Source: an uncultured Kiritimatiellota bacterium (GTDB lineage Bacteria > Verrucomicrobiota > Kiritimatiellia > RFP12 > DVOR01). Taken from it: a stretch of DNA of 64,000 nt. The notes under the pieces were generated by a model. It was not told the DNA's origin. It saw only the letters and a list, made by a program, of their open reading frames with translations, and did no database searches. The stretch spans positions 4,012-68,011 of the forward strand of contig CALXSE010000011.1 in the NCBI GenBank assembly GCA_944391085.1. The letters run 5' to 3'. Position numbers and translations under genes: made by a program. Of the stretch, positions 5,865 through 53,729 are shown piece by piece; within the stretch, counting starts at the first letter, position 1; each line of letters starts with the position of its first letter.

Positions 5865-6639
5865 CGCCGTCCTCCCCCGTCTTGAAACTCTCGGATCGGA
5901 TGGCGCGCACGGTCAGCTTCGTCACGCGCCCCATCCCCGGCCGGCGCACGCGGAACTCCCGGGGCACCCAACGCCCCTCCTCGCGCCCCAGCCGCTGCAC
6001 ATACATCTGGCGCACGGCCTTCCCGTCCGCGTCCAACTGCTCGGTCTGCAACAGGTTGCCGCTGCCTTTGTCCACCCACAGGCGCACCGCCGCCAATCCC
6101 GGCACGGGCGCCGGCGGCGTGGCCTCCAGCACCACGCAGTCGCGGCTGTTCTGGCGCGTCCGGATCCCCTTGGCGGCGATTTCCGCCTCGTCCAGCCGCC
6201 GCACGTCGGGCCACCAGAGGTAATCGAAGGAGAGATCCATCCACGTCAGGTCACTCTCGCCGATGGGCGTGTTCAGGCGCACGCCCTCCACGCGCGTGCC
6301 GTCGTCCTGCGTCAGGGCCAGGACGGGCGCGCCGCCGCGGCGCGTCAGCTCGGCGCGCAGCAGCCGCGTGCGGTCGCCCTGCGCGCGGAAGAGGTCGCAC
6401 GTCGCCGAGGGCTCCCCGCCCGACCAATCCAGCGTCAGCGCATAGGGCCGCTCCGTCTCCTCCAGCCCGCGGGCCTTGGCGGTGATGAGCGAGCCGGTGA
6501 CGGCGACGCGCTCGCGCGGGAACATCGAGCGGGCCTGGACCAGGATCTGCCGCGGCGAAAGCCCCGCCGTGGCGTCCTCCGCGCGGAGGGGCGCGCCCAG
6601 GGCCAGCGCGGCCAACAGAAGGGCTGCCAGGCGCCTCAT
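5857..6639 (-). CDS. secreted protein, outer-membrane lipoprotein-sorting (LolA-fold)-like
   Basis: Internal ATG at 6639 with signal peptide MRRLAALLLAALALGAPLRA. The beta-rich ~260-aa body resembles lipoprotein-sorting or DUF4367-type proteins. The function call is weak. Confidence 0.55.
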   Translation of the reverse strand: MRRLAALLLAALALGAPLRAEDATAGLSPRQILVQARSMFPRERVAVTGSLITAKARGLEETERPYALTLDWSGGEPSATCDLFRAQGDRTRLLRAELTRRGGAPVLALTQDDGTRVEGVRLNTPIGESDLTWMDLSFDYLWWPDVRRLDEAEIAAKGIRTRQNSRDCVVLEATPPAPVPGLAAVRLWVDKGSGNLLQTEQLDADGKAVRQMYVQRLGREEGRWVPREFRVRRPGMGRVTKLTVRAIRSESFKTGEDGDA

Positions 6640-7733
6640 TGCCCGTCGGCCCTTTCGATCAGCTCGCGCGAGAGCGCAAAGCCCGCCAGCGGCCGCATCC
6701 ACGCGGCGCGCAGGGCCTCTTCGCGCCACGGCTGGTAGGTGTCCACGTCGTGCGGCAGGGAGAGCTTGCGGCGCAGGGCGCGCCCATGCCTGCGGAAGAA
6801 GACGCGGTCGGTGGCGTCGTCGAACCACTGCGGGGACAGCGGGTCCACCTTCCGCGCCGTCGCCGCGCCGGTGGTCAGCCCCAGGCGCAGGTCGGAAAGC
6901 AGGTCGAGCGCCTCGGCCTCGCCCATCATCGTGGCGGCCTTGAGCACGGCCTTGGCGCGGGTGAGGATGTCGAGGAAGACGAACGGCTCGTCGCGCAGCA
7001 GCCGCCAGCGCGCCTCGGTCTCCTGCTCGGAGACGCGCACCAGGAACTCCCGGAAGTGCCCCGCGATTTCGGCCGTCGTCCCGCCCAGCGAGAAGCGGTT
7101 GAAGAGGATGATCAGGCTCCCGGGGGGCGGGTTCTCGGGATGCTCCAGCTCCACGAGCGCGCCCTTCGCCTCGGCCGCGTTGCAGAGCTCGTTCAGGTAG
7201 CCGAAGTGGGCCAGCCCCCCCAGGTGCATCCACGAGCGGATGCGCATCCCCGTGCCCACGAGCGTCGGCTGGGCCGTCAGGTACCCCAGGCCTGGCGCGG
7301 AGACGAAGCGCAGCGGCTCGGCAAGCGCGTCCACGAAGGCCCGCAGCAGCGCCGTCTTCCCCACGAAGTCCAGGAACGTCCCGCTCACCGAGAAGGTCAG
7401 GTGGTTGGCGCTCATCACCTCGCACCAGACCGTCGTCTCGCCGTCGCCGGCCGTCGCCTTGAGCAGGCGGTAGCCCGGGCCGCGCTCGCCGCGCGGCGAG
7501 AGGCCGTGGCAGACCTCGCCCATCTCGGCCAGGTCGTCGTCGTCGGTCACGTCCTCCGCGGCCACGCACGCCAGGAGCGCCTCCTGCAGCCGCCGCCCGA
7601 AGGCCTTGGCCGCGCGCTCGCCCATGCTCCCGGGGAAGACGGCCCCGCGCACGTTGCGCACCAGGGAGATCTGCGTCTTCGTGCAGAAGAGGCGCAGGTT
7701 CCGCTCCGCCGCGGCCGAGGGCTCATACGCCAT
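6636..7733 (-). CDS. mcsB: protein arginine kinase McsB-like (ATP:guanido phosphotransferase domain)
   Basis: ATG at 7733 (MAYEPSAAAERNLRLF). The guanidino-kinase core includes LTAQPTLVGTGMRIRSWMHL. Lies directly downstream of the McsA-like gene. Confidence 0.75.
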   Translation of the reverse strand: MAYEPSAAAERNLRLFCTKTQISLVRNVRGAVFPGSMGERAAKAFGRRLQEALLACVAAEDVTDDDDLAEMGEVCHGLSPRGERGPGYRLLKATAGDGETTVWCEVMSANHLTFSVSGTFLDFVGKTALLRAFVDALAEPLRFVSAPGLGYLTAQPTLVGTGMRIRSWMHLGGLAHFGYLNELCNAAEAKGALVELEHPENPPPGSLIILFNRFSLGGTTAEIAGHFREFLVRVSEQETEARWRLLRDEPFVFLDILTRAKAVLKAATMMGEAEALDLLSDLRLGLTTGAATARKVDPLSPQWFDDATDRVFFRRHGRALRRKLSLPHDVDTYQPWREEALRAAWMRPLAGFALSRELIERADGQ

Positions 7734-9610: not shown

Positions 9611-9724
9611 TTACACACGACGCCGCAACGCCACCCCGGCCACGCCCAGCGCAAGCAACGCCAGCGCCGTCGGCTCAGGCACAACGATGGGTTTCTCCGG
9701 GTCAGACATAAACGCACGTTTCAT
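9611..9724 (-). CDS. 37-aa peptide consisting essentially of a PEP-CTERM sorting signal
   Basis: MKRAFMSDPEKPIVVPEPTALALLALGVAGVALRRRV. An AAGGA RBS lies 5 nt before the ATG. The gene has its own promoter (9776..9804) and terminator (9562..9588). The tail is near-identical at protein level to the C-terminus of the CDS at 25976..26617. Confidence 0.6.
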   Translation of the reverse strand: MKRAFMSDPEKPIVVPEPTALALLALGVAGVALRRRV

Positions 9725-9775
9725 CTTTGTCCTTATCCGCCCCATACGGGGGCTCTCCTTTTCAGAAACGCGCTT

Positions 9776-9804
9776 ATAATACCACCCCCCCCCCATTCGG
9801 TCAA
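9776..9804 (-). promoter_or_regulatory. sigma70-type promoter TTGACC-17nt-TATTAT (TG-extended) with a G10 homopolymer inside the spacer
   Basis: The minus strand reads TTGACCGAATGGGGGGGGGGTGGTATTAT. It lies 45-50 nt upstream of the mini PEP-CTERM CDS. Confidence 0.6.
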
Positions 9805-9914
9805 GTGCTTCTTCTCGCCCTGCCCTTTTTCCTGTCTTCGCCCCGGCAAAAGGCCGACGGGAAAGCGGCGCCCGCTTCCCAGATGCGCTCCCGTGGCGGG
9901 GGCCGTGCGGGGGG

Positions 9915-14519: not shown

Positions 14520-14527
14520 GGCCGCAG

Positions 14528-14538
14528 ATTATAGCACA
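14528..14538 (-). promoter_or_regulatory. extended -10 (TGTGCTATAAT) 8 nt upstream of the HAD/radical-SAM ATG
   Basis: Perfect TATAAT preceded by TG. Implies a leaderless or near-leaderless mRNA. Confidence 0.55.
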
Positions 14539-19220: not shown

Positions 19221-19295
19221 GTTGCTCTCGCCTTTGTTCGTTTGCTCTTTCTATATGGTTTCACCGGAAGACCGGTGCCCAACCAATTGCCGTTT

Positions 19296-19303
19296 ATTAT
19301 ACA
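19296..19303 (-). promoter_or_regulatory. extended -10 (TGTATAAT) upstream of the CsoR-family gene
   Basis: Perfect TATAAT with TG. A possible -35 TTGTTT lies at a 17-nt spacing. Confidence 0.5.
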
Positions 19304-20413: not shown

Positions 20414-21235
20414 ATGGCGACAAAAACGACAGCCTCCAAGCCGGCCAAAAAAGCGGCCGCCAAGCCCGCGGCGAAAAAGGCCGCCCCCGCCACCAAAGCC
20501 GCCGCCAAAAAGCCCGCGGCCAAGGCCCCCGCGAAGGCACCGGCCAAGCAATCCCCCGCCAAAAAGGCCACTCCCCTGAAGAAGGCCCCCGCCAAGAAAC
20601 CCGCCGCCGCGACCAAGAAGACCGCCGCCAAGGCGCCCGCCAAAAAGGCCACTCCCGCCAAGGCCGCCGCCCAAAAAACCGCCGCCGCGACCAAGAAGCC
20701 CGCCGCCAAGCCCGCGGCCAAGGCCCCCGCCAAGAGGCCCGCGGCCAAGGCGCCCGCCAAAAAGCCCGCGGCGAGGGCGCTCAAGCCCAACTACGCGATC
20801 GTCCGCCCCTCCGGCGCCAAACCGGCGAAGTCCGCCGACAGGCCCGCCCCCGCCAAGCAGCGGTTCAGCGACGCCACGCTCGAGACCTTCCGCAAGCGCC
20901 TCATCGCCGACCGCGAGGAGATCCTGTCCCAGCTCAACTCCGCGCGCTCCAACGCCCTGCGCCAGACCGACGAGGAGAACGTGGAGGAGGACGGCTCCAA
21001 CGCCTTCAACCGCACGGCCGACCTTACCCGCGCCGACGGCCAGCATATGCGCCTGCGCGCCATCGACGACGCCCTGCGCGCCATCAAGAACAAGACCTAC
21101 GGCGTGTGCGCGATGTGCGGCAAGCTCATCCCCACCGAGCGCCTCAAGGCCGCCCCCTTCGCCATCCGTTGCGTGGCCTGCAAGGAGCAGTGGGAGCAGA
21201 CCCTTGCCAGAGAGCGCCGCGCCCAGAACCAATAA
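20414..21235 (+). CDS. fusion of a Lys/Ala/Pro-rich histone-H1-like tail with a DksA/TraR C4 zinc-finger domain
   Basis: ATG at 20414 with an AAGGAG RBS at 20401. About 120 aa of AKKAAAKPAAKK-type repeats are followed by a DksA-like coiled coil and CAMCGKLIPTERLKAAPFAIRCVAC. Confidence 0.8.
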   Translation: MATKTTASKPAKKAAAKPAAKKAAPATKAAAKKPAAKAPAKAPAKQSPAKKATPLKKAPAKKPAAATKKTAAKAPAKKATPAKAAAQKTAAATKKPAAKPAAKAPAKRPAAKAPAKKPAARALKPNYAIVRPSGAKPAKSADRPAPAKQRFSDATLETFRKRLIADREEILSQLNSARSNALRQTDEENVEEDGSNAFNRTADLTRADGQHMRLRAIDDALRAIKNKTYGVCAMCGKLIPTERLKAAPFAIRCVACKEQWEQTLARERRAQNQ

Positions 21236-25975: not shown

Positions 25976-26617
25976 ATGAAACGCGCATACTTCGCCGCGG
26001 CCTTCGCCGCCGTGGCCCTTTCCGCCGCTCAGGCGGTGACCTTCGACTGGGTGGAATCAAGCGTGAGCAACAATTCCCCGGTGTCGATCGGCAATGGCTA
26101 CAGCGCCTCCACGGGCTTCACCGTCGCGGTCGTCCTCTCCGGCGGCTCCCTGCCTGCGGAGGACAGCTACCAAACGCTGCTGACGCTCAGGAACAACGCG
26201 ACCTCGAACCAGCAGGTGAGGCTGCAAGTCGGCTCGGACGGGACGTTCTACACCGAGACCAGAATCGGCTCTGATTGGGGCGGGAACACGCCTGTGACCA
26301 CAGCGCCGGACTTCTCCTGGAACGGCACCGACTCCCTCGTCGCGGCCATCGTCTTCGGCGATACGACGATCTCGTTCTACGCCAACGACACGCTGCTCGG
26401 CACGATGGCGACGCCGGACAGCTGGAAGACCGGCGATTGGACGGATGTCTTCGTCGGCGCCCAGCCGTACGGCGCCACGTGGAGCGGCGACGCCCAGCTG
26501 GCCGTGGCGGCCGGCGTGGCGACCGGCGACGAAATCGCCGCCCTGCCCGAGCCGACGGCGCTTGCCCTGCTGGCCCTCGGCGTGGCCGGCGCGGCGCTCC
26601 GCCGCCGCGTGGCGTGA
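25976..26617 (+). CDS. PEP-CTERM sorting-domain protein with a LamG/concanavalin-like body
   Basis: Signal peptide MKRAYFAAAFAAVALSAAQA. The C-terminus LPEPTALALLALGVAGAALRRRVA fits PEP, a TM helix, then an Arg cluster. A GGAAGGAG RBS is present. Confidence 0.85.
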   Translation: MKRAYFAAAFAAVALSAAQAVTFDWVESSVSNNSPVSIGNGYSASTGFTVAVVLSGGSLPAEDSYQTLLTLRNNATSNQQVRLQVGSDGTFYTETRIGSDWGGNTPVTTAPDFSWNGTDSLVAAIVFGDTTISFYANDTLLGTMATPDSWKTGDWTDVFVGAQPYGATWSGDAQLAVAAGVATGDEIAALPEPTALALLALGVAGAALRRRVA

Positions 26618-31268: not shown

Positions 31269-33776
31269 TCACCAGCCGGCGGGGGATTCGCCGGCGTGGC
31301 GGTCGACGCCGGCGTAGGAGAGGCTCGCGTCCTCGTAGCGCTTGAAGTTCAGCACGGCCAGGTTCATCAGCTCGTCGTTGAAGAGGCGCAGGGAGACGAG
31401 CAGCCGGAAATCTTCCAGCGTCAGCCCCGTCACCCGCTCGAAGAGCGCCGTCTCCAGCTGCTCGATCACCTCGCGGAGCGACCGCTCGCGATAATCCGTC
31501 AGATACATGAAGACGGGGAGGCGCGCGGCGAACTTGATGAGCTTCTCCTGCACCTGCCTGCGCAGGCTCTTGAGCTCCTTCTCCTCCGGCGTCTCCCTGG
31601 GCCGCTCGCGCGCCTTGCCCGGCCCGTCCCGGGATTCGCGCTTGCCCTTCTTGATGGCATCCGTGCGGTTGATGATGGTCTCGATGGTGTCCCGGCCGAG
31701 GTTGCGGTCGGCGATGATCTTCCCGATGGCGTCCAGCGCCGCCGGGTTTCCCTGCACGCGCCTGAGCGTCTCGTTGTCCACGTTCACGAGCAGGGCGCTC
31801 TGCCAGCGGCGGGCCAGGAGGGTGGCCGCGTCGCCGGTGAAGGCGAGCTCCAGCACCTGCGCGGCGTTGATGGGGGTGAGCCTCCCGCCGTCGGAATAGA
31901 GGATGGGGAGGAAATGGATGAACTCCCCTACGCGCGCCTCGTCCGTCTGCGGGGCCGTCTCGTTGCAGCTCAGCTTGCCGCTGTACTCCGCCACCTGGCG
32001 CAACGCCCGGTTCGGCGCGAAGTCCAGCACGTAGCACTGCCGCTTGATGATGACCTCCCCGCCCTGCGCGTCGCGCGTCGTCCACGGGCTCTGCACGCGG
32101 AAGGCCGCCTGGAAATAGGTCTCCGGGCTCTGCAGGTTGCGCAACATCAGGATGCCGCCCCACGGCCGTACCGTCACGCCCGTGGTCAGCTTGCCGCACG
32201 TCAGCGTGATGGTCTTCGAGGCCATCGGGTCCTCCATCCGCGCCTCCACCGCCTCCAACGCCGCCGCGCCCATGCCCACATGCTTCCCCGCGCACACGAT
32301 CACCCCAAAGTCCCGCCACCACGCGTTCCGCTTCGCGCGCAGCAGCGCGGCCATCGCCTCGCACGCCGCCACGCTCGGCAGGAACCACACCGAGTGCCGG
32401 AGCGCGTCGGCCAACGCCCCGTGCGCGAAGGGCAGCGCCACGGGCTCGTGGCTCCTCAGCCCCTCCACCTCGCTCGGCAGGTAACGCCCCCGCAGGTAAT
32501 CCAGCCACTGCTGCACGTTCTCCTCCCACACGAACCGCGGCCGCCCGTCCGCCTCCTTCGCGGTCGAGAAGAAGGTGTTCAGGTCAAAGGTATCGAACTC
32601 CCCCTGCTCCGCCACCTTGCGGATGGCCTCCGGCAGGCGGTAGGTCAGCATCACCATCTGCGGCAACGCCGCATAGGGGTTCGGCCCCGGGCCCTTCCAC
32701 GCCGCCTTGGCCCGCTGCTCATCCGCGTACGTCCACCCATAGACCTGCTCCTCGATGAACTCCCCGCTCGCCAGCGACCGGAAGGGCGTCCCGGAAAGAT
32801 AAAGGTAACGCTCCGCCCGGATGGGCAGATCCGCCTCGGACAGGCGCCCCGCGCCCGTGGGCGCCGCCCCCTCCGCGGCCTCTGCGGCCTCCACCTCCTT
32901 CTCCTCGTCCTCCTTCGCGAAAAGCTCCTGCGCCCGCTCCCGCCACGCGCCGTAGTGATACTCGTCAAAGATGACCAGATCCCACCGCTCCTCGCGCACC
33001 CACCTGTGCTGCTCCTTGATGCCGCCGAGCGCGTTCAGCCCCAAAAAGTCCTGGAACGACCCAAAGCAGACGATGGGCCGCCGGCCGTCCGCGGCCAGAT
33101 ACTGCTCCTCCAGGCCCGGCGCCGACGGGTCGCCGTCCCGCCGCCGGATGAACTGCCACCCCTCGAAATCCACATGCGTCAGGCAATCCTCCTCCCACGC
33201 GCTCACCACCGCCGGCTTGAACGTGAGGATAAGGATCCGCCTGAACCCCATCGCCTTCGCCAGCTCATAGGCCGCGAAGGTCTTCCCGAAGCGCATCTTC
33301 GCGTTCCACAGGAAGCGCGGCCTCGTCCCCGGCTCCTCCCGCGCCTTCCGGCGGAAGTAATCCGCCGTCACCCGCACGGCCTCGGCCTGCTCCGGGCGCA
33401 TCGCGAAGTCCCGCGTCCGCCCCCGCTGGAACTCCCGCCGGTTGCGCGCCGCCACGATGGCCGCGCGCACCACCTCCACCCCACACCGAACCCACTCCCC
33501 CGCAAGCCGCCGCACCCCCTGCCGCCTCAGCTGGCGAAAGACCGCATGGTCGCCGAAGGTCGTCCCATCCCGCCGCATCGCCGACTCCCGCAACACGACC
33601 TCATAGATGGCGTGCGGCATCTTGATGGCCGCCACCTGCTCGCGGATGCGTATCTCCACCTCCCGCTCCGTGTAGCCCACCTTCAGCAGCCCCTCGTAAC
33701 CCTCCGCCTTCAGCCGGTAGGCATAGATCGTCGGCCGCACCGCGGCCCGCCCCTCAAGCACAAACGCTTCCGCCAT
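31269..33776 (-). CDS. T5orf172/GIY-YIG-like domain fused to an SF2 (DEAH, type III Res-like) helicase; putative restriction/defence subunit
   Basis: The N-terminal TIYAYRLK...LLKVGYTEREVEIRIREQ...GEWVRC is a T5orf172-type pattern. Helicase motifs are FGKTF (I), VIFDEYHYG (II), LSGTPF (III) and QAAFRVQSP (VI). The start lies 1 nt after the methyltransferase stop. Confidence 0.8.
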   Translation of the reverse strand: MAEAFVLEGRAAVRPTIYAYRLKAEGYEGLLKVGYTEREVEIRIREQVAAIKMPHAIYEVVLRESAMRRDGTTFGDHAVFRQLRRQGVRRLAGEWVRCGVEVVRAAIVAARNRREFQRGRTRDFAMRPEQAEAVRVTADYFRRKAREEPGTRPRFLWNAKMRFGKTFAAYELAKAMGFRRILILTFKPAVVSAWEEDCLTHVDFEGWQFIRRRDGDPSAPGLEEQYLAADGRRPIVCFGSFQDFLGLNALGGIKEQHRWVREERWDLVIFDEYHYGAWRERAQELFAKEDEEKEVEAAEAAEGAAPTGAGRLSEADLPIRAERYLYLSGTPFRSLASGEFIEEQVYGWTYADEQRAKAAWKGPGPNPYAALPQMVMLTYRLPEAIRKVAEQGEFDTFDLNTFFSTAKEADGRPRFVWEENVQQWLDYLRGRYLPSEVEGLRSHEPVALPFAHGALADALRHSVWFLPSVAACEAMAALLRAKRNAWWRDFGVIVCAGKHVGMGAAALEAVEARMEDPMASKTITLTCGKLTTGVTVRPWGGILMLRNLQSPETYFQAAFRVQSPWTTRDAQGGEVIIKRQCYVLDFAPNRALRQVAEYSGKLSCNETAPQTDEARVGEFIHFLPILYSDGGRLTPINAAQVLELAFTGDAATLLARRWQSALLVNVDNETLRRVQGNPAALDAIGKIIADRNLGRDTIETIINRTDAIKKGKRESRDGPGKARERPRETPEEKELKSLRRQVQEKLIKFAARLPVFMYLTDYRERSLREVIEQLETALFERVTGLTLEDFRLLVSLRLFNDELMNLAVLNFKRYEDASLSYAGVDRHAGESPAGW

Positions 33777-33777
33777 C

Positions 33778-35286
33778 TCACGCCTCCATCGGCTTCACCA
33801 TACCCTCAATGAACGCGACCTCTTCGTCCGTCAGCCCATACTTCGCGTACAGCTCCGCGTCCGTCCACGGCCTCGAAAAGTCCTGCAGGGGGACAAGCCG
33901 ATAAACGCGTTTTGTCGCATGTTGAGTATTTTTCAAGAGTAAGATTAGGAATCGACAGAAACAAGTAGACATATACTGTTTGACATTTTCTGCGACCCTC
34001 TGGTCTTTGTATACACCTATTACAAGATAGGTCTCAGAGCAACACGATTCGGGTTCCGCAAGAAAAGGTTTTCCTATCACTTGATAGGGGAAATCGCCAC
34101 GTTCGCCATAAGCATAGGAAATCATTACCTTCCAACGGTCTATCCACGCTTGTTTCTCGGGCACGTCCGCGCGGGCAATGTAACGGGGTTCCTTTGTAGC
34201 GTTTTTACTGGCATACAGGCGGACATCTCCTTTTTCTTTGCCGACATGTCCCAATACCTTCGTCTCCAGGCCAAAGGGCCGTCTTTCACTCACCAGCAAA
34301 GCGAAGGAATGTTCCTTTTTCGCGCGCACCTTCTCCACGATGGACAAAGCCTCGTTGAAACGGATGAAGGCCTCCGACCAAGGGAAAAGCAATGTGCGCC
34401 GGGTCTCGGAGGTCGCCCGCTTCCCGACGTTGCGGAAGGTGCAAAGCCCGCGATAGTCGCGTTGCCAATGGAAATAACAAACCCCGCCCGAGATATCCAC
34501 CCCATCGCCGAAGCAAATCTTGGAGTCGAAGTAATCCACAATCGTTTTCAGGCGTTCGTCGCGGAGCATCGTCTCACGGAACCGAACGAGGCCTTTTCCC
34601 CCCGTGAACCAACGGGCGGGAATAATCATGACAAGGTGATTCGGATGCAGTGCCTTGGCCTGTTCGACGAAGAGGTTGTAGATGGGCGTGGCGCTGGCGC
34701 TGTCGCTGCCGTCATCCAGTTGATACGGGGGGTTGCCGATGATGACGTCGAACTTCATGTCGAAGAGCCTTTCTGGGTTGACGCCATGGATAAAGGCGTA
34801 GGCGTGGGATTCGGCGCGCTTCCCGAAGACCTCCGCGGAGGCGCCGCAGAGCGTACACCTGCCGCCCTTCCAGGCGTGCGCGGCGGGCGGCAGCGGGATG
34901 TTGCCCTCGGGAGTGTCGAAGTGGGAGATGGCGTATTCGCCGTCGGCGGACTTGGTGCAGTAGACGGTGCGGCGGGAGGTGAGGGCGGTGAGCTCGGTGA
35001 TGGCCAGCCCAAAGAGCTGCCGGTGGAAGATGTGGTCCAGGCGCTCCTGCAGGTCTGGGAAGGTCGGTTCCAGCCCCTTGATGAGGCGTTTGGCGATTTC
35101 GCGGAGGAAGACGCCGCTCTTGCAGCAGGGGTCGAGGAAGGTGGCCGAGGGGTCGGAAAAGAGCCCCTGCGGCAAGAGGTCGAGCATGGCGTTGGCCACG
35201 CGCGGGGGCGTGAAGACCTCGTCGTTGGACAGGTTGGCCAGGCACTCCAGCACGTCCGGGTTGCGCACAATCTTCTCCGTTTCCAT
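33778..35286 (-). CDS. gamma-class N6-adenine DNA methyltransferase (Eco57I-type methylase domain) with a C-terminal recognition-like region
   Basis: EVFTPPRVANAML (motif X), FLDPCCKSGVFL (motif I) and DVIIGNPPYQ (motif IV). The 3' half is visibly AT-richer than the genome. Confidence 0.85.
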   Translation of the reverse strand: METEKIVRNPDVLECLANLSNDEVFTPPRVANAMLDLLPQGLFSDPSATFLDPCCKSGVFLREIAKRLIKGLEPTFPDLQERLDHIFHRQLFGLAITELTALTSRRTVYCTKSADGEYAISHFDTPEGNIPLPPAAHAWKGGRCTLCGASAEVFGKRAESHAYAFIHGVNPERLFDMKFDVIIGNPPYQLDDGSDSASATPIYNLFVEQAKALHPNHLVMIIPARWFTGGKGLVRFRETMLRDERLKTIVDYFDSKICFGDGVDISGGVCYFHWQRDYRGLCTFRNVGKRATSETRRTLLFPWSEAFIRFNEALSIVEKVRAKKEHSFALLVSERRPFGLETKVLGHVGKEKGDVRLYASKNATKEPRYIARADVPEKQAWIDRWKVMISYAYGERGDFPYQVIGKPFLAEPESCCSETYLVIGVYKDQRVAENVKQYMSTCFCRFLILLLKNTQHATKRVYRLVPLQDFSRPWTDAELYAKYGLTDEEVAFIEGMVKPMEA

Positions 35287-35301
35287 GGCACACTCCTTCC
35301 G

Positions 35302-36021
35302 TCAAAGATCCAAGGTCATCTGGACAACGCCCGGGGCGACCGCCTCCACGGCGCGGCGTACCCCGGGCGGCGGGGCGTCGGCAGACAAGGGCGCGAGCGC
35401 ATGGTAGGGCACGGGGGGAAAGGCGTTGTTGGGGAGGGCCGCGAACGGAAGACTGTCCGAATCGTCGAGCAAATCGGCGAGGGAACACTCCGCGCGGGCC
35501 ACGGCGTCGCCCTGCCACCGCCACTCGGTGAAGACGATCGGCGGGTGGGTCTCCGTCCCCTCGGGGTGGAGCGTATCGCCCAGGACGATGTTCCGCTCCA
35601 GGACAAAGCGGGCGGCGGCCAGATAGACGGGGAATTGACGTTGCCCGCGCAGGCGCTTGCCGTGCGCCGCCTCCCAGCGGGCGAGGAGCGCGGCGCGGCA
35701 GGCGGCCACGTTGTCGGGCAGGATGTCGATGCCGTAGAGCGAGGTCAACGCCTCGAAGGCCGCGCGGCGGAAGCGGGCCGTATCGTTGCGGCCGCCGACC
35801 AGCCGGCGCGCCGCGCGCAGTTTCCGCCTGAAAATCTCGACCAGGAAGTTGCCGTCGCCGCAGGCGGGCTCAAGGAAGCGGGCGCCCACGTCGGCGCATT
35901 GGGCGGCCACCAAATCGCACATGTCGCGGACGAGCCAATCGGGGGTAAAGACCTCCCCATGGTCCCGCACGCGTTTACGGGACTTGATCAGTCTCTGTTC
36001 CGTCTCCCTGGCCTTCGCCAT
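35302..36021 (-). CDS. methyltransferase-like protein: SAM-binding N-terminal module only, motif IV degenerate
   Basis: EVFTPDWLVRDM (motif X), FLEPACGDGNFL (motif I) and LYGIDI (motif II). Where NPPY is expected the sequence reads THPPIV. ATG at 36021; the track start at 36024 is a TTG. Confidence 0.7.
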   Translation of the reverse strand: MAKARETEQRLIKSRKRVRDHGEVFTPDWLVRDMCDLVAAQCADVGARFLEPACGDGNFLVEIFRRKLRAARRLVGGRNDTARFRRAAFEALTSLYGIDILPDNVAACRAALLARWEAAHGKRLRGQRQFPVYLAAARFVLERNIVLGDTLHPEGTETHPPIVFTEWRWQGDAVARAECSLADLLDDSDSLPFAALPNNAFPPVPYHALAPLSADAPPPGVRRAVEAVAPGVVQMTLDL

Positions 36022-36051
36022 CAAAAAAGCACGCCTTCCTTGTCCGTGCTT
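36022..36051 (-). terminator. terminator-like hairpin plus U-run immediately before the first gene of the R-M-like operon
   Basis: Minus strand AAGCACG-gacaaggaagg-CGTGCTT followed by TTTTG, then the ATG. It shares 4 nt with the long stem at 36048..36166. Confidence 0.4.
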
Positions 36052-36166
36052 TAGCTGAGGCCTTCGGAGCCCTTAAAAGAACACGCACAAAGAAGACGTG
36101 CCACAACGGCACGCCTTGCTCGACATGTTGCCCTTTTAATGAAAGTTCCGAAGTTTCAGCTAAAGC
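36048..36166. repeat. 119-bp imperfect inverted-repeat element (about 25 bp pairable arms plus an apical hairpin), low GC
   Basis: GCTTTAGCTGA (36048-58) pairs with TCAGCTAAAGC (36156-66). CTTCGGA (36062-68) pairs with TCCGAAG (36147-53). TTAAAAG (36073-79) pairs with CTTTTAA (36133-39). An apical hairpin CGTGCC/GGCACG lies at 36097-36113. Confidence 0.6.
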
Positions 36167-39514: not shown

Positions 39515-39619
39515 TCCCACCCCCGCCACAGCCCCCGCCGCCGCGCCGGGAAGGCCGCGCCCCACCCTTCCCCGGCACCCAAGGCCCGCCCGAGGCCCGT
39601 ATCGCCGCGTCGCGGCGGC

Positions 39620-40050
39620 GTCCTGGCGGAGGCAGGGGCACTTCGTGCCGGCCGTTCCGCCACCTCGCCGCGGGTGCTCGCCCAGGCACGGGGCCGGGTA
39701 ACAGCCAACGCCCAGCCCGACGCGCCGGCCACGGGGGCCCGCCCGGGCGCAAGGACAGGCCGCCCTCCCCGCAACTTTGCACGGGTACGCATAGGTTCCG
39801 CCCAGGCACGGGGCCGGGGGCCCCTCCCGCAACGCGTGCGCGGGGCGCGTGGGTCTCGCCCCCAGCCCATCCGGAAACGCCTCCTTGGTCTTGCCCGCAA
39901 CGCTTGCACGGGGACGCGCGCAATCCCGTCCTGAGACGGGGCTGGGTTGTCTTGGCCGGCGCAAGGTCAAGCGTAAACGTGGGGAGCACCCGGGCGCGGG
40001 GGCGGGCCACCCGCACAAGTCTTGCACGGGGCGCATAAACCCCGCCTTGG
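39620..40050. repeat. degenerate ~58-68 bp tandem repeat field
   Basis: CCCGCAAC-n-TTGCACGGGG-like cores start at about 39767, 39825, 39893 and 40010, with a weak copy near 39958. GCCCAGGCACGGGGCCGGG occurs exactly twice, at 39680 and 39800. Confidence 0.5.
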
Positions 40051-40082
40051 GCGCGGGACGCGAAAAAAAGCAAAAAAGGGGA

Positions 40083-40110
40083 TTGACTGAGAGAAAATGT
40101 TTGATATAAT
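40083..40110 (+). promoter_or_regulatory. near-consensus sigma70 promoter TTGACT-16nt-TATAAT (TG-extended)
   Basis: TTGACT lies at 40083-88 and TGaTATAAT at 40102-10. Confidence 0.65.
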
Positions 40111-40116
40111 TTTAGG

Positions 40117-40175
40117 CGTTTTCTGAGATTCATTCTCAGATGCCGCCCACGGGCGGCGGGGCGATGCCCCTTTTG
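40117..40175 (+). ncRNA. three-hairpin RNA element, copy A (candidate sRNA or leader upstream of clpC)
   Basis: Begins with the 5' box TTAGGCGTTTTC. Hairpins lie at 40122-40140, 40142-40157 and 40158-40170, followed by TTTT. A paralogous copy on the minus strand at 50743..50808 shows compensatory stem changes. Confidence 0.5.
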
Positions 40176-40292
40176 CCGCCTTCGCGCGGCGTTCCCACGG
40201 GGGTGGGACAGTCTGCCTTAGCAACGTTTCCGAGCGTCGAAAGGCCCCGGCCTTTGCGCCGCCGCGGGCGCGTCCTGCGCGGGGGGGCGGAT

Positions 40293-40303
40293 TGTGGTAA
40301 AAT
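40293..40303 (+). promoter_or_regulatory. extended -10 (TGTGGTAAAAT), clpC-proximal promoter
   Basis: Motif match 33 nt upstream of the clpC ATG, with an AGTGAGG RBS. Confidence 0.5.
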
Positions 40304-40336
40304 GGCGGGTCAAAAGATTGAAAGTGAGGTTCGAGA

Positions 40337-42928
40337 ATGGAATTGCCGGATTTGAGTGGGTTCTCGCCGAACGCGCGGCGCGTGATGCGCCAGGCGCAGG
40401 TGGTGGCGCAGCGTCTGGGGCACGACCATGTGGGCTCGGAGCATCTGATCGTGGCGCTGGCGGAGGTGGAGTGCCGCGCGCAGGGGATCCTGCGCACGGC
40501 GTTCAGGACGTCGGCCGACGACCTGTGCGTCCGCGTGGAGGCGCAGGTCGCCTCGGGCGGGGTGCAGGAGGCGAACCCGGCGGGGTTGCCGTGGTCGCAG
40601 CGCGTGCGGAAGATCTGCGACGTGGCGCGCATGGTGGCCGAAACGCGCGGGCGCCAGGGGGTGGACACGACGACGCTGCTCTACGCCATCGTGGCGGAGG
40701 GGGGGCTGGGGGCGTTGGTGCTGCGCCAGCTGGGCGTGACGACCGAGGCCCTGGAGCGGTTCATGCCGCAGGTGGACGCGACGGAGCAGGAGTTCGAGGG
40801 CCCCGAGGCGATGAAGCCGGAGCAGGGCCAGGCGAAGCCCGAGGAGGGGAAGGAGCCGAAGAAGACGCCGGCGCTGGACACCTTCGGGCGGGATTTGACG
40901 GAGCTGGCCGCGCGCGGGAGGCTCGACCCGGTGATCGGGCGGGAGGCCGAGCTGCGCCGCCTGATCCAGATCCTGTGCCGCCGGAGCAAGAACAACGCCG
41001 TGCTCATCGGCGAGGCGGGCGTCGGCAAGACGGCGGTGGTGGAGGGGCTGGCCCAGGCCATCGCGGCCGGGGAGGTGCCCGAGGCGATGCTGGGCAAGCG
41101 GGTGGTGGCGCTGGACATGGCGCTGCTGGTGGCCGGGACGCAGTACCGCGGGCAGTTCGAGGAGCGCCTGAAGCGCGTCATCAACGAGGTGGCGCAGGGC
41201 GGGCGGATCATCCTGTTCCTGGACGAGCTGCACACCATCGTGGGGGCGGGCGGCTCCGAGGGCGCGATGGACGCGGCGAACATCATCAAGCCGGCCCTGG
41301 CGCGCGGGGAGTTCCAGTGCATCGGGGCGACGACGCTCAACGAGTACCGCAAGGGCATCGAGAAGGACGCGGCGCTGGAGCGGCGCTTCCAGACGGTGAT
41401 GGTGGAGGAGCCGACGGTGGCGCAGGCCATCGAGATCCTCCGCGGCCTGGCGCCGAAGTACGCCGAGCACCACGGCGTGCGGTATTCGCCCGCGGCGCTG
41501 GAGGCCGCGGTGCGCCTGACGGCGCGTTACCAGCCGGCGCGGCAGCTGCCTGACAAGGCCATCGACGCGATCGACGAGACGGGCTCGCGCCTGCGCCTGG
41601 CCGCCGCGATGCGCCCCGCGCACCTGCGGAAGCTGGAGCAGGAGCTGCGCGCCCTGACCAAGCAGAAGGACGTGGCGGTGGCGGCGGACAACTACGACGC
41701 CGCGGCCGTGCTGCGCGACCGCGAGACGGCCGCCGCCGAACGCTTCGAGGACGAGCTGCGCAAGTGGCAGGGCCGCCGCGGCGCCAAGCGCCTGGTCGTC
41801 TCCGCCGACGCGGTGGCGCAGACGGTGGCGACGATGACGGGCGTGCCCGTGAGCCAGATGACCGAGGGCGACCGCCGGCGGATGCTGGCCCTGGAGCAGG
41901 AGCTTGACGGGCGCGTCATCGGCCAGCACGACGCGGTCTCGGCCGTGGCGCGGGCGCTGCGGCGGGCGCGGGCGGGGATGAAGGACCCCTCGCGGCCGAT
42001 CGGGTCGTTCCTCTTCCTGGGGCCGAGCGGGGTCGGCAAGACGTTGCTGGCCAAGGAATTGGCCAGGGCGCTCTTCGGCGACGCGAAGGCGCTTGTGCAG
42101 CTGGACATGTCGGAGTACATGGAGAAGCACACCGTCAGCCGGCTGGTCGGCTCGCCGCCCGGTTACGTGGGGCACGAGGAGGGCGGGCAACTGACCGAGC
42201 GCGTCCGCCGCCGCCCCTATTGCGTGGTGCTCTTCGACGAGATCGAGAAGGCCCACCCGGACGTGGCGAACACGTTGCTGCAGATCCTGGAGGAGGGCTG
42301 CCTGACCGACGGGCTGGGGCGGCGCGTGGACTTCCGCAACACGGTGGTCATCCTGACCTCGAACCTCGGGTGCAACTTCGCCGGCGAGGCGCCGACGATG
42401 GGCTTCCTGCCCGGCGAGGCGGCCAAGGGCGTGCTGATGGCGCACGAGGCGCTGCGTACGAAGATCCTGGCCGAGGCGCGCAAGGCGCTCAAGCCCGAGC
42501 TGCTCAACCGGTTCGACGAGACCATCGTCTTCCGCGCGCTCGACCGCGAGGCGATGGCGAAGATCCTGGAGGTGGAGCTGGCGGCGGTGCGCAGGCGCCT
42601 GGCCGCGAACGGCATCCACTTTGAGCTCGACGCGGCCGCGGCCAAGCTGGTGCTCGACGAGGGCTTCAGGCCCGAGCAGGGCGCGCGCCCGCTCCGCCGC
42701 GCCATCGAGCGCCTGGTGGAGGACGCGCTGGCCGACGCCGTGCTGCGCGAGGGCCCCGGGAAGGCGCCCTACCTGCTCTCCCCCGGCGAGCCCGGGCCGG
42801 GCGGGGAGCGGCGCCTTGTGGCCACGCCGCGCCCGACGCCCGCCGCCGCGCCGCGCAAGGCCCCGCGCCAGCCGCCCTCGCGCCGCCGCGCCAAGCCCCC
42901 GCTCCCCGCGGCCTCGTCCACCCGCTGA
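40337..42928 (+). CDS. clpC: ATP-dependent Clp protease ATP-binding subunit ClpC
   Basis: Contains Clp_N repeats, two AAA+ modules ([15 protein letters not shown] and [17 protein letters not shown]) and a UVR-like linker. 863 aa. Confidence 0.9.
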
Positions 42929-48802: not shown

Positions 48803-50584
48803 TTAGTTGGCCTGGGCGGCGAGGGCCTCCGACTTTTCCTCGAGCGCCAGATACTGCTCGACGGCCGCGTCGAGCGCGGCCTGCACCTGGGCCAGCTCCG
48901 CCGAAAGCGCGGCGTAATCCGCGCCCGGCGCGGCGAGGGCGGCGTTGAGTTCGGCGACGCGCCCCTCCATCCCCTCGATTTCCCCCGGCAGGGTCTCCAA
49001 CAGCCGCCGCTCCTTGTAAGAGAGGCGCGTGGCGGCATTGTCGCGCCGGGGCGGCGCGGCCTTCCTCGGCTCCGCTTCGGCGGGCGCCGGGACGGGCGCG
49101 GGCTGACGGGCCAGGGCGGCCTGCCAATCGCTGTAGCCGCCGGGATAGGCGGCCACGCGCCCGTCCTCGACGACGAGCACGGAGGTGGCCACGTGGTCGA
49201 TGAAATCGCGGTCGTGCGACACCAGCAGGAGCGTGCCGGGATACGTCGCGAGCTGCTCCTCCAACAGTTCGAGCGTCTCCACGTCCAGGTCGTTGGTCGG
49301 CTCGTCCATCACCAGCAGGTTCCCGGGATTGAGGAAGAGCCGCGCCAACAGCAGGCGCGCGCGTTCGCCGCCGGAGAGGGCCTTGACGGGCGTGCGGGCG
49401 CGCTGCGGGGTGAACAGGAAATCGCCGAGATAGCCGTACAGATGCTTGCGGACGCCGCCGACGGTGACGAACTCCTTGCCTTCCGCGACGTTCTCCGCCA
49501 CGGTGGCCTCCGGGTCGAGCGCCGCGCGCAGCTGGTCGAAGAAGGCCGGCCTCACGTTCGTGCCGAGGCGCTGTTCCCCCGCCTGCGGCGTCAGCCGCCC
49601 GAGAATCAGGTTGAGCAGGGTGGACTTCCCCGCGCCGTTCCCGCCCAGGATGCCGATGCGCTCCCCGCGCAGGATGCGCAGCGACACGTCGCGCAGGACG
49701 GGCCGCGCGGGGTCATACCCAAAGGTGACGCCCTCGCAGCGGTAGACCAGGTCTCCGGCGCGCCCCTCGGCGCTGAGGGTGAGCGTGGCCTGGCCCGCCT
49801 GGGTGCGGCGCTCGGCGAACTCCCGGCGCAGCTTCATGAGCGCGGCCACGCGCCCCTCGTTGCGGCAGGTGCGGGCCTTGACGCCGCGGCGGAGCCACGC
49901 CTCCTCCTCGGTCAGCTTCTTGGCCTTGCGCTCCCAGTAGACGGCCTCGTCGGACAGCAGGTCGGCCTTGCGCCGCAAGAAGGTCTGATAATCGCAGTCC
50001 CAGCCCGAGAGGACGCCGCGGTCAAGGTCGAAGACGCTCTTGGCCACGGCCCGGAGGAAGGCGCGGTCGTGCGTGATGAACAGGCACGCGAAGGGCGCCG
50101 TGGACAGGAAGCGCTCCAGCCACTGGATGGAGGCGATGTCCAGATGGTTCGTCGGCTCGTCCAACAGCAGCAGCTGCGGCTCCCGCGCCAGGGCGCACCC
50201 CAGCAGCACGCGGCGGCGGAGCCCGCCCGAGAGCGCGTTGAACGCGGCCGCCGGCGGCAGGGAAAGGCGCGTGCAGAGCGCGTCGGCCACGTGGGCGCGC
50301 GCAGGGTCGTGCAGCTCCGCCAGCAAAATCTCGTGCACCGTGCCGGGGCGGTCGGCGGGAACGTCCTGCGGCAGGTAGGCCACGCGCGTGGCGGGCGCCT
50401 TGAGCACCTCGCCGGAATCGGGCTCGATGAGGCCGGCGATGACCTTGAGCAGGGTGGATTTGCCCTCGCCGTTGCGCCCCGTGACGCAGGCGCGCGCCCC
50501 GGGCTCGATCGAGAGCGTGATGTTCTCCAGGACGGGCGCGTTGCCGAACCCCACCGTCACGTCATGCAAAGTCACCAAAGCCAT
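48803..50584 (-). CDS. ABC-F family ATPase (Uup-like, C-terminal coiled coil)
   Basis: Internal ATG at 50584 (MALVTLHDVTVGF). Contains two NBDs (GRNGEGKST, GGNGAGKST; LSGGLRRR, LSGGERAR) and no TM domain. Confidence 0.85.
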   Translation of the reverse strand: MALVTLHDVTVGFGNAPVLENITLSIEPGARACVTGRNGEGKSTLLKVIAGLIEPDSGEVLKAPATRVAYLPQDVPADRPGTVHEILLAELHDPARAHVADALCTRLSLPPAAAFNALSGGLRRRVLLGCALAREPQLLLLDEPTNHLDIASIQWLERFLSTAPFACLFITHDRAFLRAVAKSVFDLDRGVLSGWDCDYQTFLRRKADLLSDEAVYWERKAKKLTEEEAWLRRGVKARTCRNEGRVAALMKLRREFAERRTQAGQATLTLSAEGRAGDLVYRCEGVTFGYDPARPVLRDVSLRILRGERIGILGGNGAGKSTLLNLILGRLTPQAGEQRLGTNVRPAFFDQLRAALDPEATVAENVAEGKEFVTVGGVRKHLYGYLGDFLFTPQRARTPVKALSGGERARLLLARLFLNPGNLLVMDEPTNDLDVETLELLEEQLATYPGTLLLVSHDRDFIDHVATSVLVVEDGRVAAYPGGYSDWQAALARQPAPVPAPAEAEPRKAAPPRRDNAATRLSYKERRLLETLPGEIEGMEGRVAELNAALAAPGADYAALSAELAQVQAALDAAVEQYLALEEKSEALAAQAN

Positions 50585-50593
50585 AGCGCGCGC

Positions 50594-50604
50594 ATTATAC
50601 CACA
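50594..50604 (-). promoter_or_regulatory. extended -10 (TGTGGTATAAT) 9 nt upstream of the ABC-F ATG
   Basis: Perfect TATAAT with TG. Implies a near-leaderless mRNA. Confidence 0.55.
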
Positions 50605-50742
50605 CCGCACGTGCCGGGAACCGCCGGCACCCATCGCACGGCTTGGGCGGGGGAGAACGGCCCGCGCCGGCCTTGCGGGCCTGCCACGGGACAACGCCCG
50701 CGGGGGCGGGCAGGGGGCCGCGGACGCGGCGCGCCGGGCGAA

Positions 50743-50808
50743 CCGGCAAGGGCCCAACGGGCCGCCGCTCAGGGCGGCAGAGGCTTCCGCCTCGTGAAAA
50801 CGCCTAAT
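50743..50808 (-). ncRNA. three-hairpin RNA element, copy B (upstream of the ABC-F gene)
   Basis: The minus strand reads ATTAGGCGTTTTC, then the three hairpins GAGGC-ggaa-GCCTC, GCCGC-cctga-GCGGC and GGCCC-gtt-GGGCC, then CTTGCCGG. Confidence 0.45.
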
Positions 50809-50817
50809 ATTATAGCA
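50809..50817 (-). promoter_or_regulatory. extended -10 (TGCTATAAT) driving RNA element copy B
   Basis: Perfect TATAAT with TG, immediately upstream of the conserved TTAGGCGTTTTC box. Confidence 0.55.
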
Positions 50818-50855
50818 TCCATTTCCAGGAATGCAACTCTTTTTTTTGGCGGGAT

Positions 50856-50888
50856 GAAAAAAAAGGGCCCCCGGCGGGGCCGGGGGCC
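50856..50888 (-). terminator. intrinsic terminator after rubrerythrin
   Basis: Minus strand GGCCCCCGGC-ccc-GCCGGGGGCC followed by CTTTTTTTT. Confidence 0.8.
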
Positions 50889-50912
50889 TTTGGCGTGCGC
50901 GCCGGGCGCGCC

Positions 50913-51449
50913 TCAGTAGGCGTTTTCGGGCTCAAGGGCGAAGTAGGCGCGGGGATGCTTGCAGACGGGGCACATCTCGGGGGCCTTGTCGCTGATGATG
51001 ACGGCGCCGCAGTTGAGGCACTCCCAGCGGCGCTTGCCGGTGCGGACGAAGACCTCGCCGGTCTCGACGTTCTTGGCAAGGGCGTTGTAGCGGGCCTCGT
51101 GGCGGGCCTCGACCTCGGCGACGCCGCGCATCTGGCGGGCGATGTCGTGGAAGCCCTCGGCGTCGGCCTCGTCGGCCATGCGCTTGTACATGTCGGTCCA
51201 CTCGTAGTTCTCCCCGGCGGCGGCGGCCTTGAGGTTCTCGAGGGTGTTGCCGATGCCCTGGAGGTGCTTGAACCAGAGCTTGGCATGCTCCTTTTCGTTG
51301 TTGGCGGTCTCCTCGAAGATCCTGGCGATCTGGACGTAGCCCTCCTTCTTGGCGACGGAGGCGAAGTAGGTGTACTTGTTGCGGGCCTGGGATTCGCCGG
51401 CGAAGGCTTCCATCAGGTTCTTTTCGGTTTTGCTGCCTTTGAGTTCCAT
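50913..51449 (-). CDS. rbr: rubrerythrin
   Basis: Internal ATG at 51449. The ferritin-like [13 protein letters not shown]...EEKEHA region is followed by the C-terminal rubredoxin block CLNCG...CPVC. Confidence 0.9.
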
Positions 51450-53709: not shown

Positions 53710-53717
53710 CGTGCCCT

Positions 53718-53729
53718 ATTCTAACAAAA
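53718..53729 (-). promoter_or_regulatory. extended -10 (TTTTGTTAGAAT) 8 nt upstream of the ABC permease ATG
   Basis: Motif match. Implies a near-leaderless mRNA. Confidence 0.5.

Follow-up and report, generated by a model that had tools for sequence, protein, structure and literature searches.

Paired non-coding cassettes with predicted promoters and hairpin arrays upstream of clpC and an ABC-F gene in a gut Kiritimatiellia-like bacterium

Two loci in a 64,000-nucleotide stretch of contig CALXSE010000011.1, from an uncultured Kiritimatiellota bacterium (the whole analyzed stretch is termed here the window), carry related non-coding elements: copy A, upstream of clpC on the plus strand, and copy B, upstream of an ABC-F ATPase gene on the minus strand. 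Each element combines a predicted sigma70-type distal promoter (P1), a 12-nucleotide (nt) box and a tandem array of five or six short hairpins. Judged from sequence comparison, the pair is a real and statistically unusual non-coding feature under selection, and each locus appears to be a lineage-specific cassette of ~210-245 bp, positioned directly upstream of the ancestral promoter (P2) of its gene. The support surpasses that of the usual two-copy motif, owing to a pattern of strain polymorphism that spares the stems. Our tentative reading, to which we give somewhat less than an even chance, is that the cassette supplies its gene with an additional, distal promoter and a structured 5' leader. 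The elements of the two copies are as follows (positions in the window, strand, description; stems in capitals, loops in lower case).

40072 to 40080, plus: A-tract AAAAAAGGG of copy A, at ~-46 to -38; matches the proximal UP-element pattern AAAAAARNR
40083 to 40110, plus: predicted P1 of copy A; -35 TTGACT (40083-40088), 16-nt spacer, extended -10 TGaTATAAT (40102-40110)
40112 to 40123, plus: 12-nt box TTAGGCGTTTTC of copy A, spanning the discriminator TTAGG, the predicted start (~40116-40118) and the putative first transcribed bases
40122 to 40140, plus: copy A hairpin 1, TCTGAGA-ttcat-TCTCAGA
40142 to 40157, plus: copy A hairpin 2, GCCGCC-cacg-GGCGGC; stem sequence matches copy B
40158 to 40170, plus: copy A hairpin 3, GGGGC-gat-GCCCC, followed by TTTT
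40175 to 40190, plus: copy A hairpin 4, GCCGC-cttcgc-GCGGC; kept in copy B
40193 to 40208, plus: copy A hairpin 5, TCCCAC-gggg-GTGGGA
50839 to 50847, minus: A-tract AAAAAAAAG of copy B, at ~-46 to -38
50809 to 50836, minus: predicted P1 of copy B; -35 TTGCAT (50836-50831), 16-nt spacer, TGcTATAAT (50817-50809)
50796 to 50807, minus: 12-nt box TTAGGCGTTTTC of copy B, an exact-string match to that of copy A
50695 to 50793, minus: copy B array, six hairpins by enumeration
50793 to 50780, minus: copy B hairpin 1, GAGGC-ggaa-GCCTC
50778 to 50764, minus: copy B hairpin 2, GCCGC-cctga-GCGGC
50763 to 50751, minus: copy B hairpin 3, GGCCC-gtt-GGGCC
50747 to 50733, minus: copy B hairpin 4, GCCGG-ttcgc-CCGGC
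50730 to 50717, minus: copy B hairpin 5, GCCGC-gtcc-GCGGC
50708 to 50695, minus: copy B hairpin 6, CGCCC-ccgc-GGGCG

The three contiguous hairpins named in the first-pass annotation of this DNA are present in both copies, and the element proved to be longer than was claimed there: it includes a fourth conserved hairpin, absent from the earlier description, and the arrays reach 40208 (copy A) and 50695 (copy B). Hairpins were enumerated as perfect Watson-Crick pairs with a stem of at least 5 and a loop of 3-7 nt, G-U extensions being outside the scan. In the window, which has a GC content of 70.7%, the background is 9.3 perfect hairpins per kb, and at least four non-overlapping hairpins within 80 nt occur at two places only, 40122-40208 (n = 5) and 50695-50793 (n = 6). 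The same scan of 150 kb, comprising seven related loci and the unrelated locus L013, revealed no array of at least five hairpins; the two four-hairpin clusters of the relatives' 150 kb both lie within the clpC coding sequence. For hairpins 2 and 3 of copy B to coexist, hairpin 2 has to be read as GCCGC/GCGGC. In GC-corrected folding energy, copy A falls in the lowest 0.25% and copy B in the lowest 3% of all 78-nt windows on both strands. Copy A alone folds into its hairpins (z = -3.8). The z-score of copy B against its own shuffles is not significant, so that the case for copy B rests on the array count and on the comparison with copy A, and not on energy.

The second locus has the same layout, as had been noted from the sequence, and is paralogous: BLASTN gives an alignment of 123 columns between 40071-40191 and 50848-50732, with 67% identity (E = 7e-9; ungapped, 72% over 53 nt). 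The homologous segment, from 40071 to about 40192, takes in hairpin 4. When a covariance model is derived from copy A only, it recovers copy B at 34 bits (E ~1e-7), with hairpins 2 to 4 in register. In the resulting alignment 97.6% of the paired cells can pair; in slid controls, with the 3' partners displaced by 1-3 columns, the figure is 38-60%. Four pairs show double compensatory changes, and no core pair is broken. Hairpin 3 accounts for two of them, both G-C to C-G flips; one more pair is flipped in hairpin 4, and hairpin 1 has an A-U to G-C change. The compensatory substitutions originally proposed for hairpins 1 and 3 are thus borne out in hairpin 3, whereas hairpin 1 keeps a GAG/CUC core and contributes a single compensatory pair. 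Because only two independent lineages are available, these changes are descriptive and amount to no statistical test of covariation; the covariation check suggested at first pass accordingly yielded the four pairs without statistical support.

A second line of evidence is provided by strain polymorphism. Four further same-species strain sequences (L029/L030, L031/L032 and L047; 97.8-98.9% identity) were compared with the window; that of L047 was the only one retrieved by a protein search with a spurious open reading frame across the non-coding stretch. The blocks at the two loci contain 8 (A) and 12 (B) polymorphic sites, and none of these 20 disrupts a stem, with stems accounting for 118 of 450 nt (p ~0.002). 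Five polymorphisms fall inside the arrays (copy B), and every one of them spares the stems (p ~0.007); one is a C-run deletion at the edge of hairpin 5. The loops, on the other hand, vary freely among strains (GGAA to GAAA, CUGAG to CUGCG), so that selection is on the stems as such.

The distal promoter of copy A is, as stated in the first-pass annotation, the best sigma70-type promoter of the window: with both strands scanned, TTGACT-16-TGaTATAAT is the top -35/-10 match (11 of 12 positions plus TG), and its sequence is unchanged across the five strains. In copy B the -35 hexamer, TTGCAT, matches at only 3 of 6 positions, hence this promoter has no entry in the window promoter scan; its spacer contains single-nucleotide polymorphisms at 50826 and 50820 among strains. 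The A-tract of copy A, which fits the proximal UP-element consensus (AAAAAARNR), is polymorphic at 40078 (G or A). The discriminators of both P1 promoters are AT-rich, unlike those of the other promoter-like sites listed for the window. TAnAAT hexamers are scarce, with only about a dozen on both strands of the 64 kb, the majority within evident TGnTAtAAT promoters, and two of them are the copy A and copy B loci. The 19-nt sequence TATAATnTTAGGCGTTTTC occurs exactly twice in the window, at 40105-40123 (plus) and 50814-50796 (minus), compared to 0 expected from shuffles.

A 12-nt box shared by the two copies had also been described, and the exact string is indeed found at both loci. Since the box opens one base after the -10 (at 40112 in copy A), its first four to six bases would represent promoter discriminator rather than RNA. 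In strain L047, one extra nucleotide is inserted at the predicted start, and the box of copy A reads gTTAGGCaGTTTTC (TATAATgTTAGGCaGTTTTC); the box is therefore not invariant. On consensus grounds transcription would start at ~40116-40118 in copy A and at 50801-50803 in copy B, in a shared region (G)GCGUUUUC, such that the array would begin ~4-10 nt from the predicted start. The transcript formerly proposed to begin with UUAGGCGUUUUC at about 40117 has to be revised, as a start at ~40116-40118 would give GCGUUUUC... instead.

Another promoter that combines an A-tract, TTG and TGTATAAT is found in the window at 19250-19301 (minus strand), upstream of a small gene that a short hand translation tentatively assigns as CsoR/RcnR-like. 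This promoter has neither the box nor a hairpin array; a UP-like A-tract plus an extended -10 is thus not exclusive to the cassettes.

The remaining parts of the two loci, with gene families assigned by Pfam on called genes, are the following.

40209 to 40276, plus: remainder of block A; no sister-species counterpart, several strain polymorphisms, no U-tract terminator
40277 to 40336, plus: ancestral predicted P2 of clpC and 5' untranslated region (UTR); TGg-TAAAAT with the -10 at 40298-40303, and a Shine-Dalgarno sequence; 88% identical to the sister species
40337 to 42928, plus: clpC, first of a co-directional run of clpC, gyrB, antiporter, M3 peptidase and YgjP-like genes
50615 to 50858, minus: entire block B, ~245 nt as opposed to ~65 unrelated nt in the sister species
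50585 to 50599, minus: ancestral predicted P2 of the ABC-F gene; leaderless type, lacking a Shine-Dalgarno sequence, with TATAAT (50599-50594) placed nine bases before the ATG
48803 to 50584, minus: ABC-F ATPase gene

The relatives that were compared are listed here with their ClpC identity and the state of their clpC locus.

L014 and L015 (sister species), ClpC 94%: cassette absent; flanking genes 93.5% identical at the nucleotide level
L016 and L039, ClpC 84-85%: cassette absent; other upstream neighbors and other short palindromic repeats
L037 and L038, ClpC 77-79%: cassette absent; no extended -10 or box-like match

The window belongs to a gut-metagenome contig (ENA ONAT22-1 scaffold_489), and the nearest named homologues of its ClpC are mostly from Kiritimatiellia metagenome-assembled genomes (MAGs). 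Homology between the sister species and the window ends at 40277, just upstream of the proximal promoter of clpC. The sister species keeps both proximal promoters, the clpC 5' UTR and the terminator of the rubrerythrin gene near copy B, and lacks both cassettes, which are therefore lineage-specific blocks placed before genes with existing promoters. Given their absence from a sister with 93.5% identity, the element is not the ancestral leader of clpC or of the ABC-F gene. Moreover, copies that are 67% identical cannot, on so short a timescale, be recent duplicates of each other. To judge from these comparisons, copies A and B must derive either from an older family or from outside; the other possibility is a loss of both in the sister lineage. 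Within the collections searched, the cassette appears confined to one gut Kiritimatiellia-like species.

The left neighbor of clpC differs in the sister species, which places copy A at a synteny break. Adjacent to it, between the malic-enzyme promoter and copy A, is a ~550-nt non-coding stretch (39520-40070) rich in short direct repeats, including CGCCCAGGCACGGGGCCGGG at 39679 and 39799 and YTTGCACGGGG three or four times. The repeat number of this stretch differs in L047, and the contigs of two other samples (L031 and L032) stop at ~39978, as expected at a repeat or strain-variable junction. Upstream of clpC, L016 contains palindromic units of the CCCTAAGGG type four times (9760-9880) and L039 contains TAGCCGTGGAAGGTTTGGCnCTTnGnGCCTGCACG twice (9620-9900), with a similar unit in L014 (9850-9900). 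The clpC upstream region is a hotspot of short palindromic repeats in this clade.

This setting invites an explanation at the level of DNA, in which the element has no RNA function and consists of palindromes of the REP/BIME type, or of a mobile or recombination-imported promoter block, the palindromes serving protein binding or recombination or being by-products of insertion. We consider it improbable. It would account for the pure Watson-Crick palindromes formed by every scanned stem, for the replacement or insertion of both blocks relative to a 93.5%-identical sister, for the position of copy A beside a repeat-rich variable stretch where the contigs of two samples end, for the other palindromic repeats upstream of clpC in relatives and for an A/B identity (67%) that implies an older family or outside source. 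Duplicated promoter regions before unrelated genes have, in addition, already been described (PMC3575422). However, the terminal inverted repeats and target-site duplications of a MITE or insertion-sequence derivative were not seen at the block ends when the junctions were compared with the sister species, and the segments look replaced. The hairpins are not copies of one unit, unlike those of the REP family; a further copy turned up neither in 71.5 kb of this genome nor in 150 kb of relatives, and plasmid, phage and IMG/VR collections gave no match. The fixed order of promoter, start and hairpins on the transcribed strand of both copies points instead to transcription.

Further copies, the existence of which had been raised at first pass, were found neither in the window, the contig ends and six related loci nor in the GTDB, JGI, IMG/VR, plasmid and phage collections. 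The covariance model of copy A gave no further match in the six related loci, nor in the ~7.5 kb that flank the window, and blastn gave none in the plasmid and phage collections. Exact TATAATnTTAGGCGTTTTC scans produced 11 matches in GTDB (185,579 species genomes), 12 in JGI metagenomes and 2 in IMG/VR, and a pattern of box plus hairpin 2 produced 2 more (IMG/VR). These counts are close to chance, and the exact-pattern scans, which would miss variants like that of L047, yielded no further true copy. The TATAATnTTAGGCGTTTTC matches elsewhere were dismissed as chance occurrences, nearly all being low in GC and in unrelated contexts. One (L021) lies antisense to an rpsJ leader from Clostridia; several more each make up one half of an AT-rich terminator palindrome; and another, in a Verrucomicrobiota MAG (L013), adjoins the ribosome-binding site of an opposite-strand gene and lacks the hairpin array. 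The L022 match reads TGgTATAATcTTAGGCGTTTTCtgagcctctgaggcc, on a contig that ends there and has 46% GC. Upstream of clpC in L014, GGCGTTTTCTG (E = 3) is the tail of a terminator-like hairpin, CCCCGCAGGGG-CGTTTTCTG, and was not taken as homology.

The view of the first-pass annotation that the element belongs to no known RNA family is upheld, as Rfam 15 has no match at either copy. At the gathering threshold, the whole window gave 0 matches. With E up to 10, there were 0 matches in 39900-40400, and in 50500-51000 there were sub-threshold matches only, centered on the rubrerythrin terminator and none on the element. No matching features were found for a palindromic operator across the -10, for Fur/PerR, for RfaH ops or for an rRNA boxA. 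A CIRCE/HrcA inverted repeat, TTAGCACTC-N9-GAGTGCTAA, is not present at the distal promoter, since the box has no inverted partner in the element. In the case of a CsrB/RsmZ-type sponge, GGA occurs in 1 of the 11 loops (GGAA of copy B hairpin 1), which is GAAA in other strains. Tandem CtsR heptads (GGTCAAA) are absent from the cassette.

A single GGTCAAA is found in the proximal 5' UTR of clpC (40304-40336), within GGTCAAAAGATTGAAAG, which is conserved in the 94% relative; it represents one CtsR-type heptad, and the second heptad is mismatched. A McsB-like gene with an ATP:guanido phosphotransferase domain is located at 6636-7733 (minus strand), ~33 kb from clpC, following a 187-residue protein without a Pfam match. 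The McsB-like arginine kinase is the usual partner of ClpC.

If P1 is active, RNA polymerase would start at ~40116-40118 (A) and 50801-50803 (B), transcribe the hairpin array and pass the proximal promoter into clpC, gyrB and the following genes, or into the ABC-F gene. Both cassettes have the orientation of the downstream gene. As the earlier account had it, a second -10 in that same orientation is closer to the gene; going downstream from the distal -10, it is reached after 193 nt in copy A and 215 nt in copy B. The distance from box to ATG is 225 and 223 nt, and that from array end to ATG is 129 and 111 nt, in copies A and B, respectively. The terminator scan called no intrinsic terminator between P1 and the gene in either cassette, and did call the canonical rubrerythrin terminator nearby. 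The hairpin 3 plus UUUU combination, pointed out earlier, fails as a terminator: the UUUU of copy A is UUGU in four strains (L029, L031, L032 and L047) and CUUG in copy B. With it goes the main argument for a discrete ~60-nt small RNA (sRNA) or a classical attenuator, and in the absence of a U-tract terminator, read-through into the genes would be the physically simplest expectation. The hairpins would act via their stems rather than their loops, and the array would form a generic 5' domain that may protect the message from 5'-end-dependent decay, shield the leader from Rho or damp read-through. We infer the activity of P1, its start site, the read-through and the role of the hairpins from sequence.

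The distal-promoter reading thus draws on the consensus quality of P1 (the best of the window in copy A, with an extended -10 in both copies), on the shared orientation of cassette and gene, on the lack of a called terminator between them, on the rarity and extreme folding energy of the arrays, on the selection for stems with free loops, and on the placement of both cassettes before genes whose own promoters are conserved in the sister species. Several points weigh against it. The promoter, start and read-through are predictions from consensus. The leader 3' of the array shows no conservation between A and B, and only two copies were found, which bears on generality. All 11 detected hairpins are purely Watson-Crick, as palindromes acting in DNA would be. 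The ABC-F gene has no Shine-Dalgarno sequence and would be leaderless from P2, so that a long P1 transcript may be poorly translated. In very GC-rich bacteria, U-less or tandem hairpins may terminate, and read-through is not assured.

Regarding leaderless genes, a TGnTAtAAT ~9-11 bases before the start codon without a Shine-Dalgarno sequence is found not only for the ABC-F gene (50585-50599) but also at 14520-14533 and 53710-53723, all on the minus strand, and leaderless mRNAs therefore appear common in this organism.

The same observations can be read as two paralogous stand-alone sRNA genes, each giving an abundant RNA of ~90-110 nt from P1, a reading that we find rather less likely and rank second. 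The array would then stabilize the RNA, and transcription would end through U-less or tandem-hairpin termination, through processing, or through the action of Rho on the C-rich stretch downstream of the array. The ancestral P2 would be insulated, and the single-stranded 5' end GCGUUUUC, or the RNA body, would provide a trans-acting seed or a protein platform. The style of P1 (UP-like A-tract, extended -10 and AT-rich discriminator) differs from the other promoter-like sites of the window, and such an architecture is typical of highly expressed stable RNAs. The genes keep their own promoters and the relatives lack the cassette only, as for an independent unit; the stems are under selection; and for a leaderless ABC-F gene with no Shine-Dalgarno sequence, a read-through message would be of little use, a point that fits transcriptional interference as well. 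Against these stand the lack of a canonical intrinsic terminator and the non-conserved U-run, in a genome that has canonical terminators (e.g., that of rubrerythrin); a seed that carries a 1-nt insertion in L047 and a box of which half is probably upstream of the start; and the lack of further family members in the collections searched.

A potential target for such an sRNA is found beside copy B. The 3' end of the rubrerythrin gene, GAAAACGCCTAC(TGA) at 50916-50927 (minus strand), is complementary to the box at 11 of 12 positions; it shares the strand of box B and precedes it by 120 nt. This stop region is the sole exact occurrence of GAAAACGCC in 128 kb (both strands), apart from the antisense of the box itself, in favor of the sRNA reading. 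As a 9-mer, GAAAACGCC is only weakly improbable (~0.3 expected), and the rubrerythrin end is identical in the sister species, which has no copy B; both points detract from that reading. The complementarity could be a coincidence, a target or a trace of the origin of the box.

A regulatory RNA acting in cis, which either modifies its own polymerase (put-like antitermination) or senses conditions as an attenuator or thermometer for stress genes, appears very unlikely. Paralogous structured RNAs directly after strong promoters and before long or stress-related units would suit such a role, and the arms of hairpins 2 and 4 of copy A can swap partners to form an alternative fold. The alternative pairing is weaker in copy B, however. 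Loops and bulges are not conserved, although contact with polymerase or ligand would be expected to preserve them, and Rfam offers no match. Many ABC-F resistance genes use leader-peptide (ribosome-mediated) attenuators. No conserved leader peptide was found here: copy A has an AUG at 40140 without a Shine-Dalgarno sequence, and no corresponding AUG was seen in copy B. An RNA thermometer of the ROSE type is also not indicated, since the arrays end too far from the start codons (the 129 and 111 nt given above) to mask a ribosome-binding site, and the ABC-F gene has none.

Other features of the window are unrelated to the cassettes. Its longest inverted repeat (68 nt, 79%; 9614-9681 and 26544-26611) seems to correspond to the PEP-CTERM sorting signal at the C-terminal end of two opposite-strand genes (one copy reads ...PEPTALALLALGVAGVALRRRV*), and does not resemble a non-coding element. 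Degenerate 12/60-nt repeats at 20457-20767 (plus strand) would encode a Lys/Ala/Pro-rich tract, KAPAKKPAAATKK..., like basic repeat proteins of the histone H1 or AlgP type. The region of ~31270-36060 contains an Eco57I-like methyltransferase/restriction gene, two large proteins without a Pfam match and a low-GC intergenic patch (33900-34100). It is the most strain-variable part of the window (94-95% identity as opposed to 97.8% elsewhere, with an unaligned gap at 33944-34716) and looks like a mobile defense island.

We know of no work on non-coding regulation in the Kiritimatiellia, which are common, little-studied anaerobes of gut and sediment. Should the transcriptional reading hold true, the cassettes would represent a clear case of promoter gain, in which a ready-made strong promoter and structured 5' RNA were placed before a proteostasis gene (clpC) and a translation factor gene (ABC-F) in one species, with the sister species as a natural cassette-free control. 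Selection acting on the stems alone of minimal hairpin arrays could reveal what such arrays do, be it RNA stabilization, Rho shielding or promoter insulation, and the cassette would be a compact natural part for high-GC hosts. If it is no more than an sRNA or leader private to this species, it simply joins many others. A bolder conjecture, which we hold to be a long shot, is that A and B belong to an undescribed family of promoter-plus-RNA cassettes, spread by transposition or recombination in gut Kiritimatiellia, that rewires stress and translation genes and whose RNA has an activity of its own, as a trans regulator pairing with the rubrerythrin stop region or as a put-like cis modifier. With copies that are 67% identical and both absent from the sister, such a family would need an older, larger and unseen source.

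Several known systems resemble the cassettes in part. The 5' stabilizers of the E. coli ompA and the B. subtilis aprE and ermC leaders consist of one or two hairpins a few nt from the 5' end. Like these, the cassettes have stable hairpins near the (predicted) 5' end behind a strong promoter, with a dependence on stem rather than loop; unlike them, they comprise five or six tandem hairpins, ~4-10 nt from the predicted start, and stabilization is putative. The REP, BIME and REPIN elements are many copies of one consensus palindrome, usually 3' of genes. The cassettes share with them GC-rich perfect intergenic palindromes, the lack of inverted ends and target duplications, and variability among close relatives, whereas the 11 hairpins differ in both stems and loops, and the array is fixed behind a promoter, with two arrays known.

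OmrA/OmrB and RybB are trans-acting sRNAs with a conserved 5' seed and a variable body. The resemblance is in the paralogous pair, each with its own strong promoter, identical 5' end and diverged structured body; the cassettes differ in having no Rho-independent terminator, in a would-be seed, part of which precedes the predicted start and which an insertion interrupts in one strain, and in their occurrence in one species. The putL and putR sites of phage HK022 are two larger stem-loops with conserved internal features that act in cis on the transcribing polymerase. Here too there are two diverged paralogous stem-loop RNAs per genome, each behind a strong promoter, as opposed to which the cassettes contain five or six minimal hairpins with free loops on a cellular chromosome, with no sequence or Rfam similarity to put.

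The nearest concept, next to these 5' stem-loop leaders and 5'-seed sRNAs, is that of promoter reuse or putative mobile promoters (Nijveen, Matus-Garcia and van Passel 2012; PMC3575422). [quoted passage not shown] Like mobile promoters, the cassettes are homologous non-coding promoter regions before two non-paralogous genes (clpC and ABC-F), with no known mobile element and no Rfam match. Unlike them, they fall below the identity threshold (72% over 53 nt ungapped, 67% over 123 nt) and are located farther upstream, at ~-266 to -145. What the two cassettes conserve is the core promoter and the pairing of the array, rather than the overall sequence.

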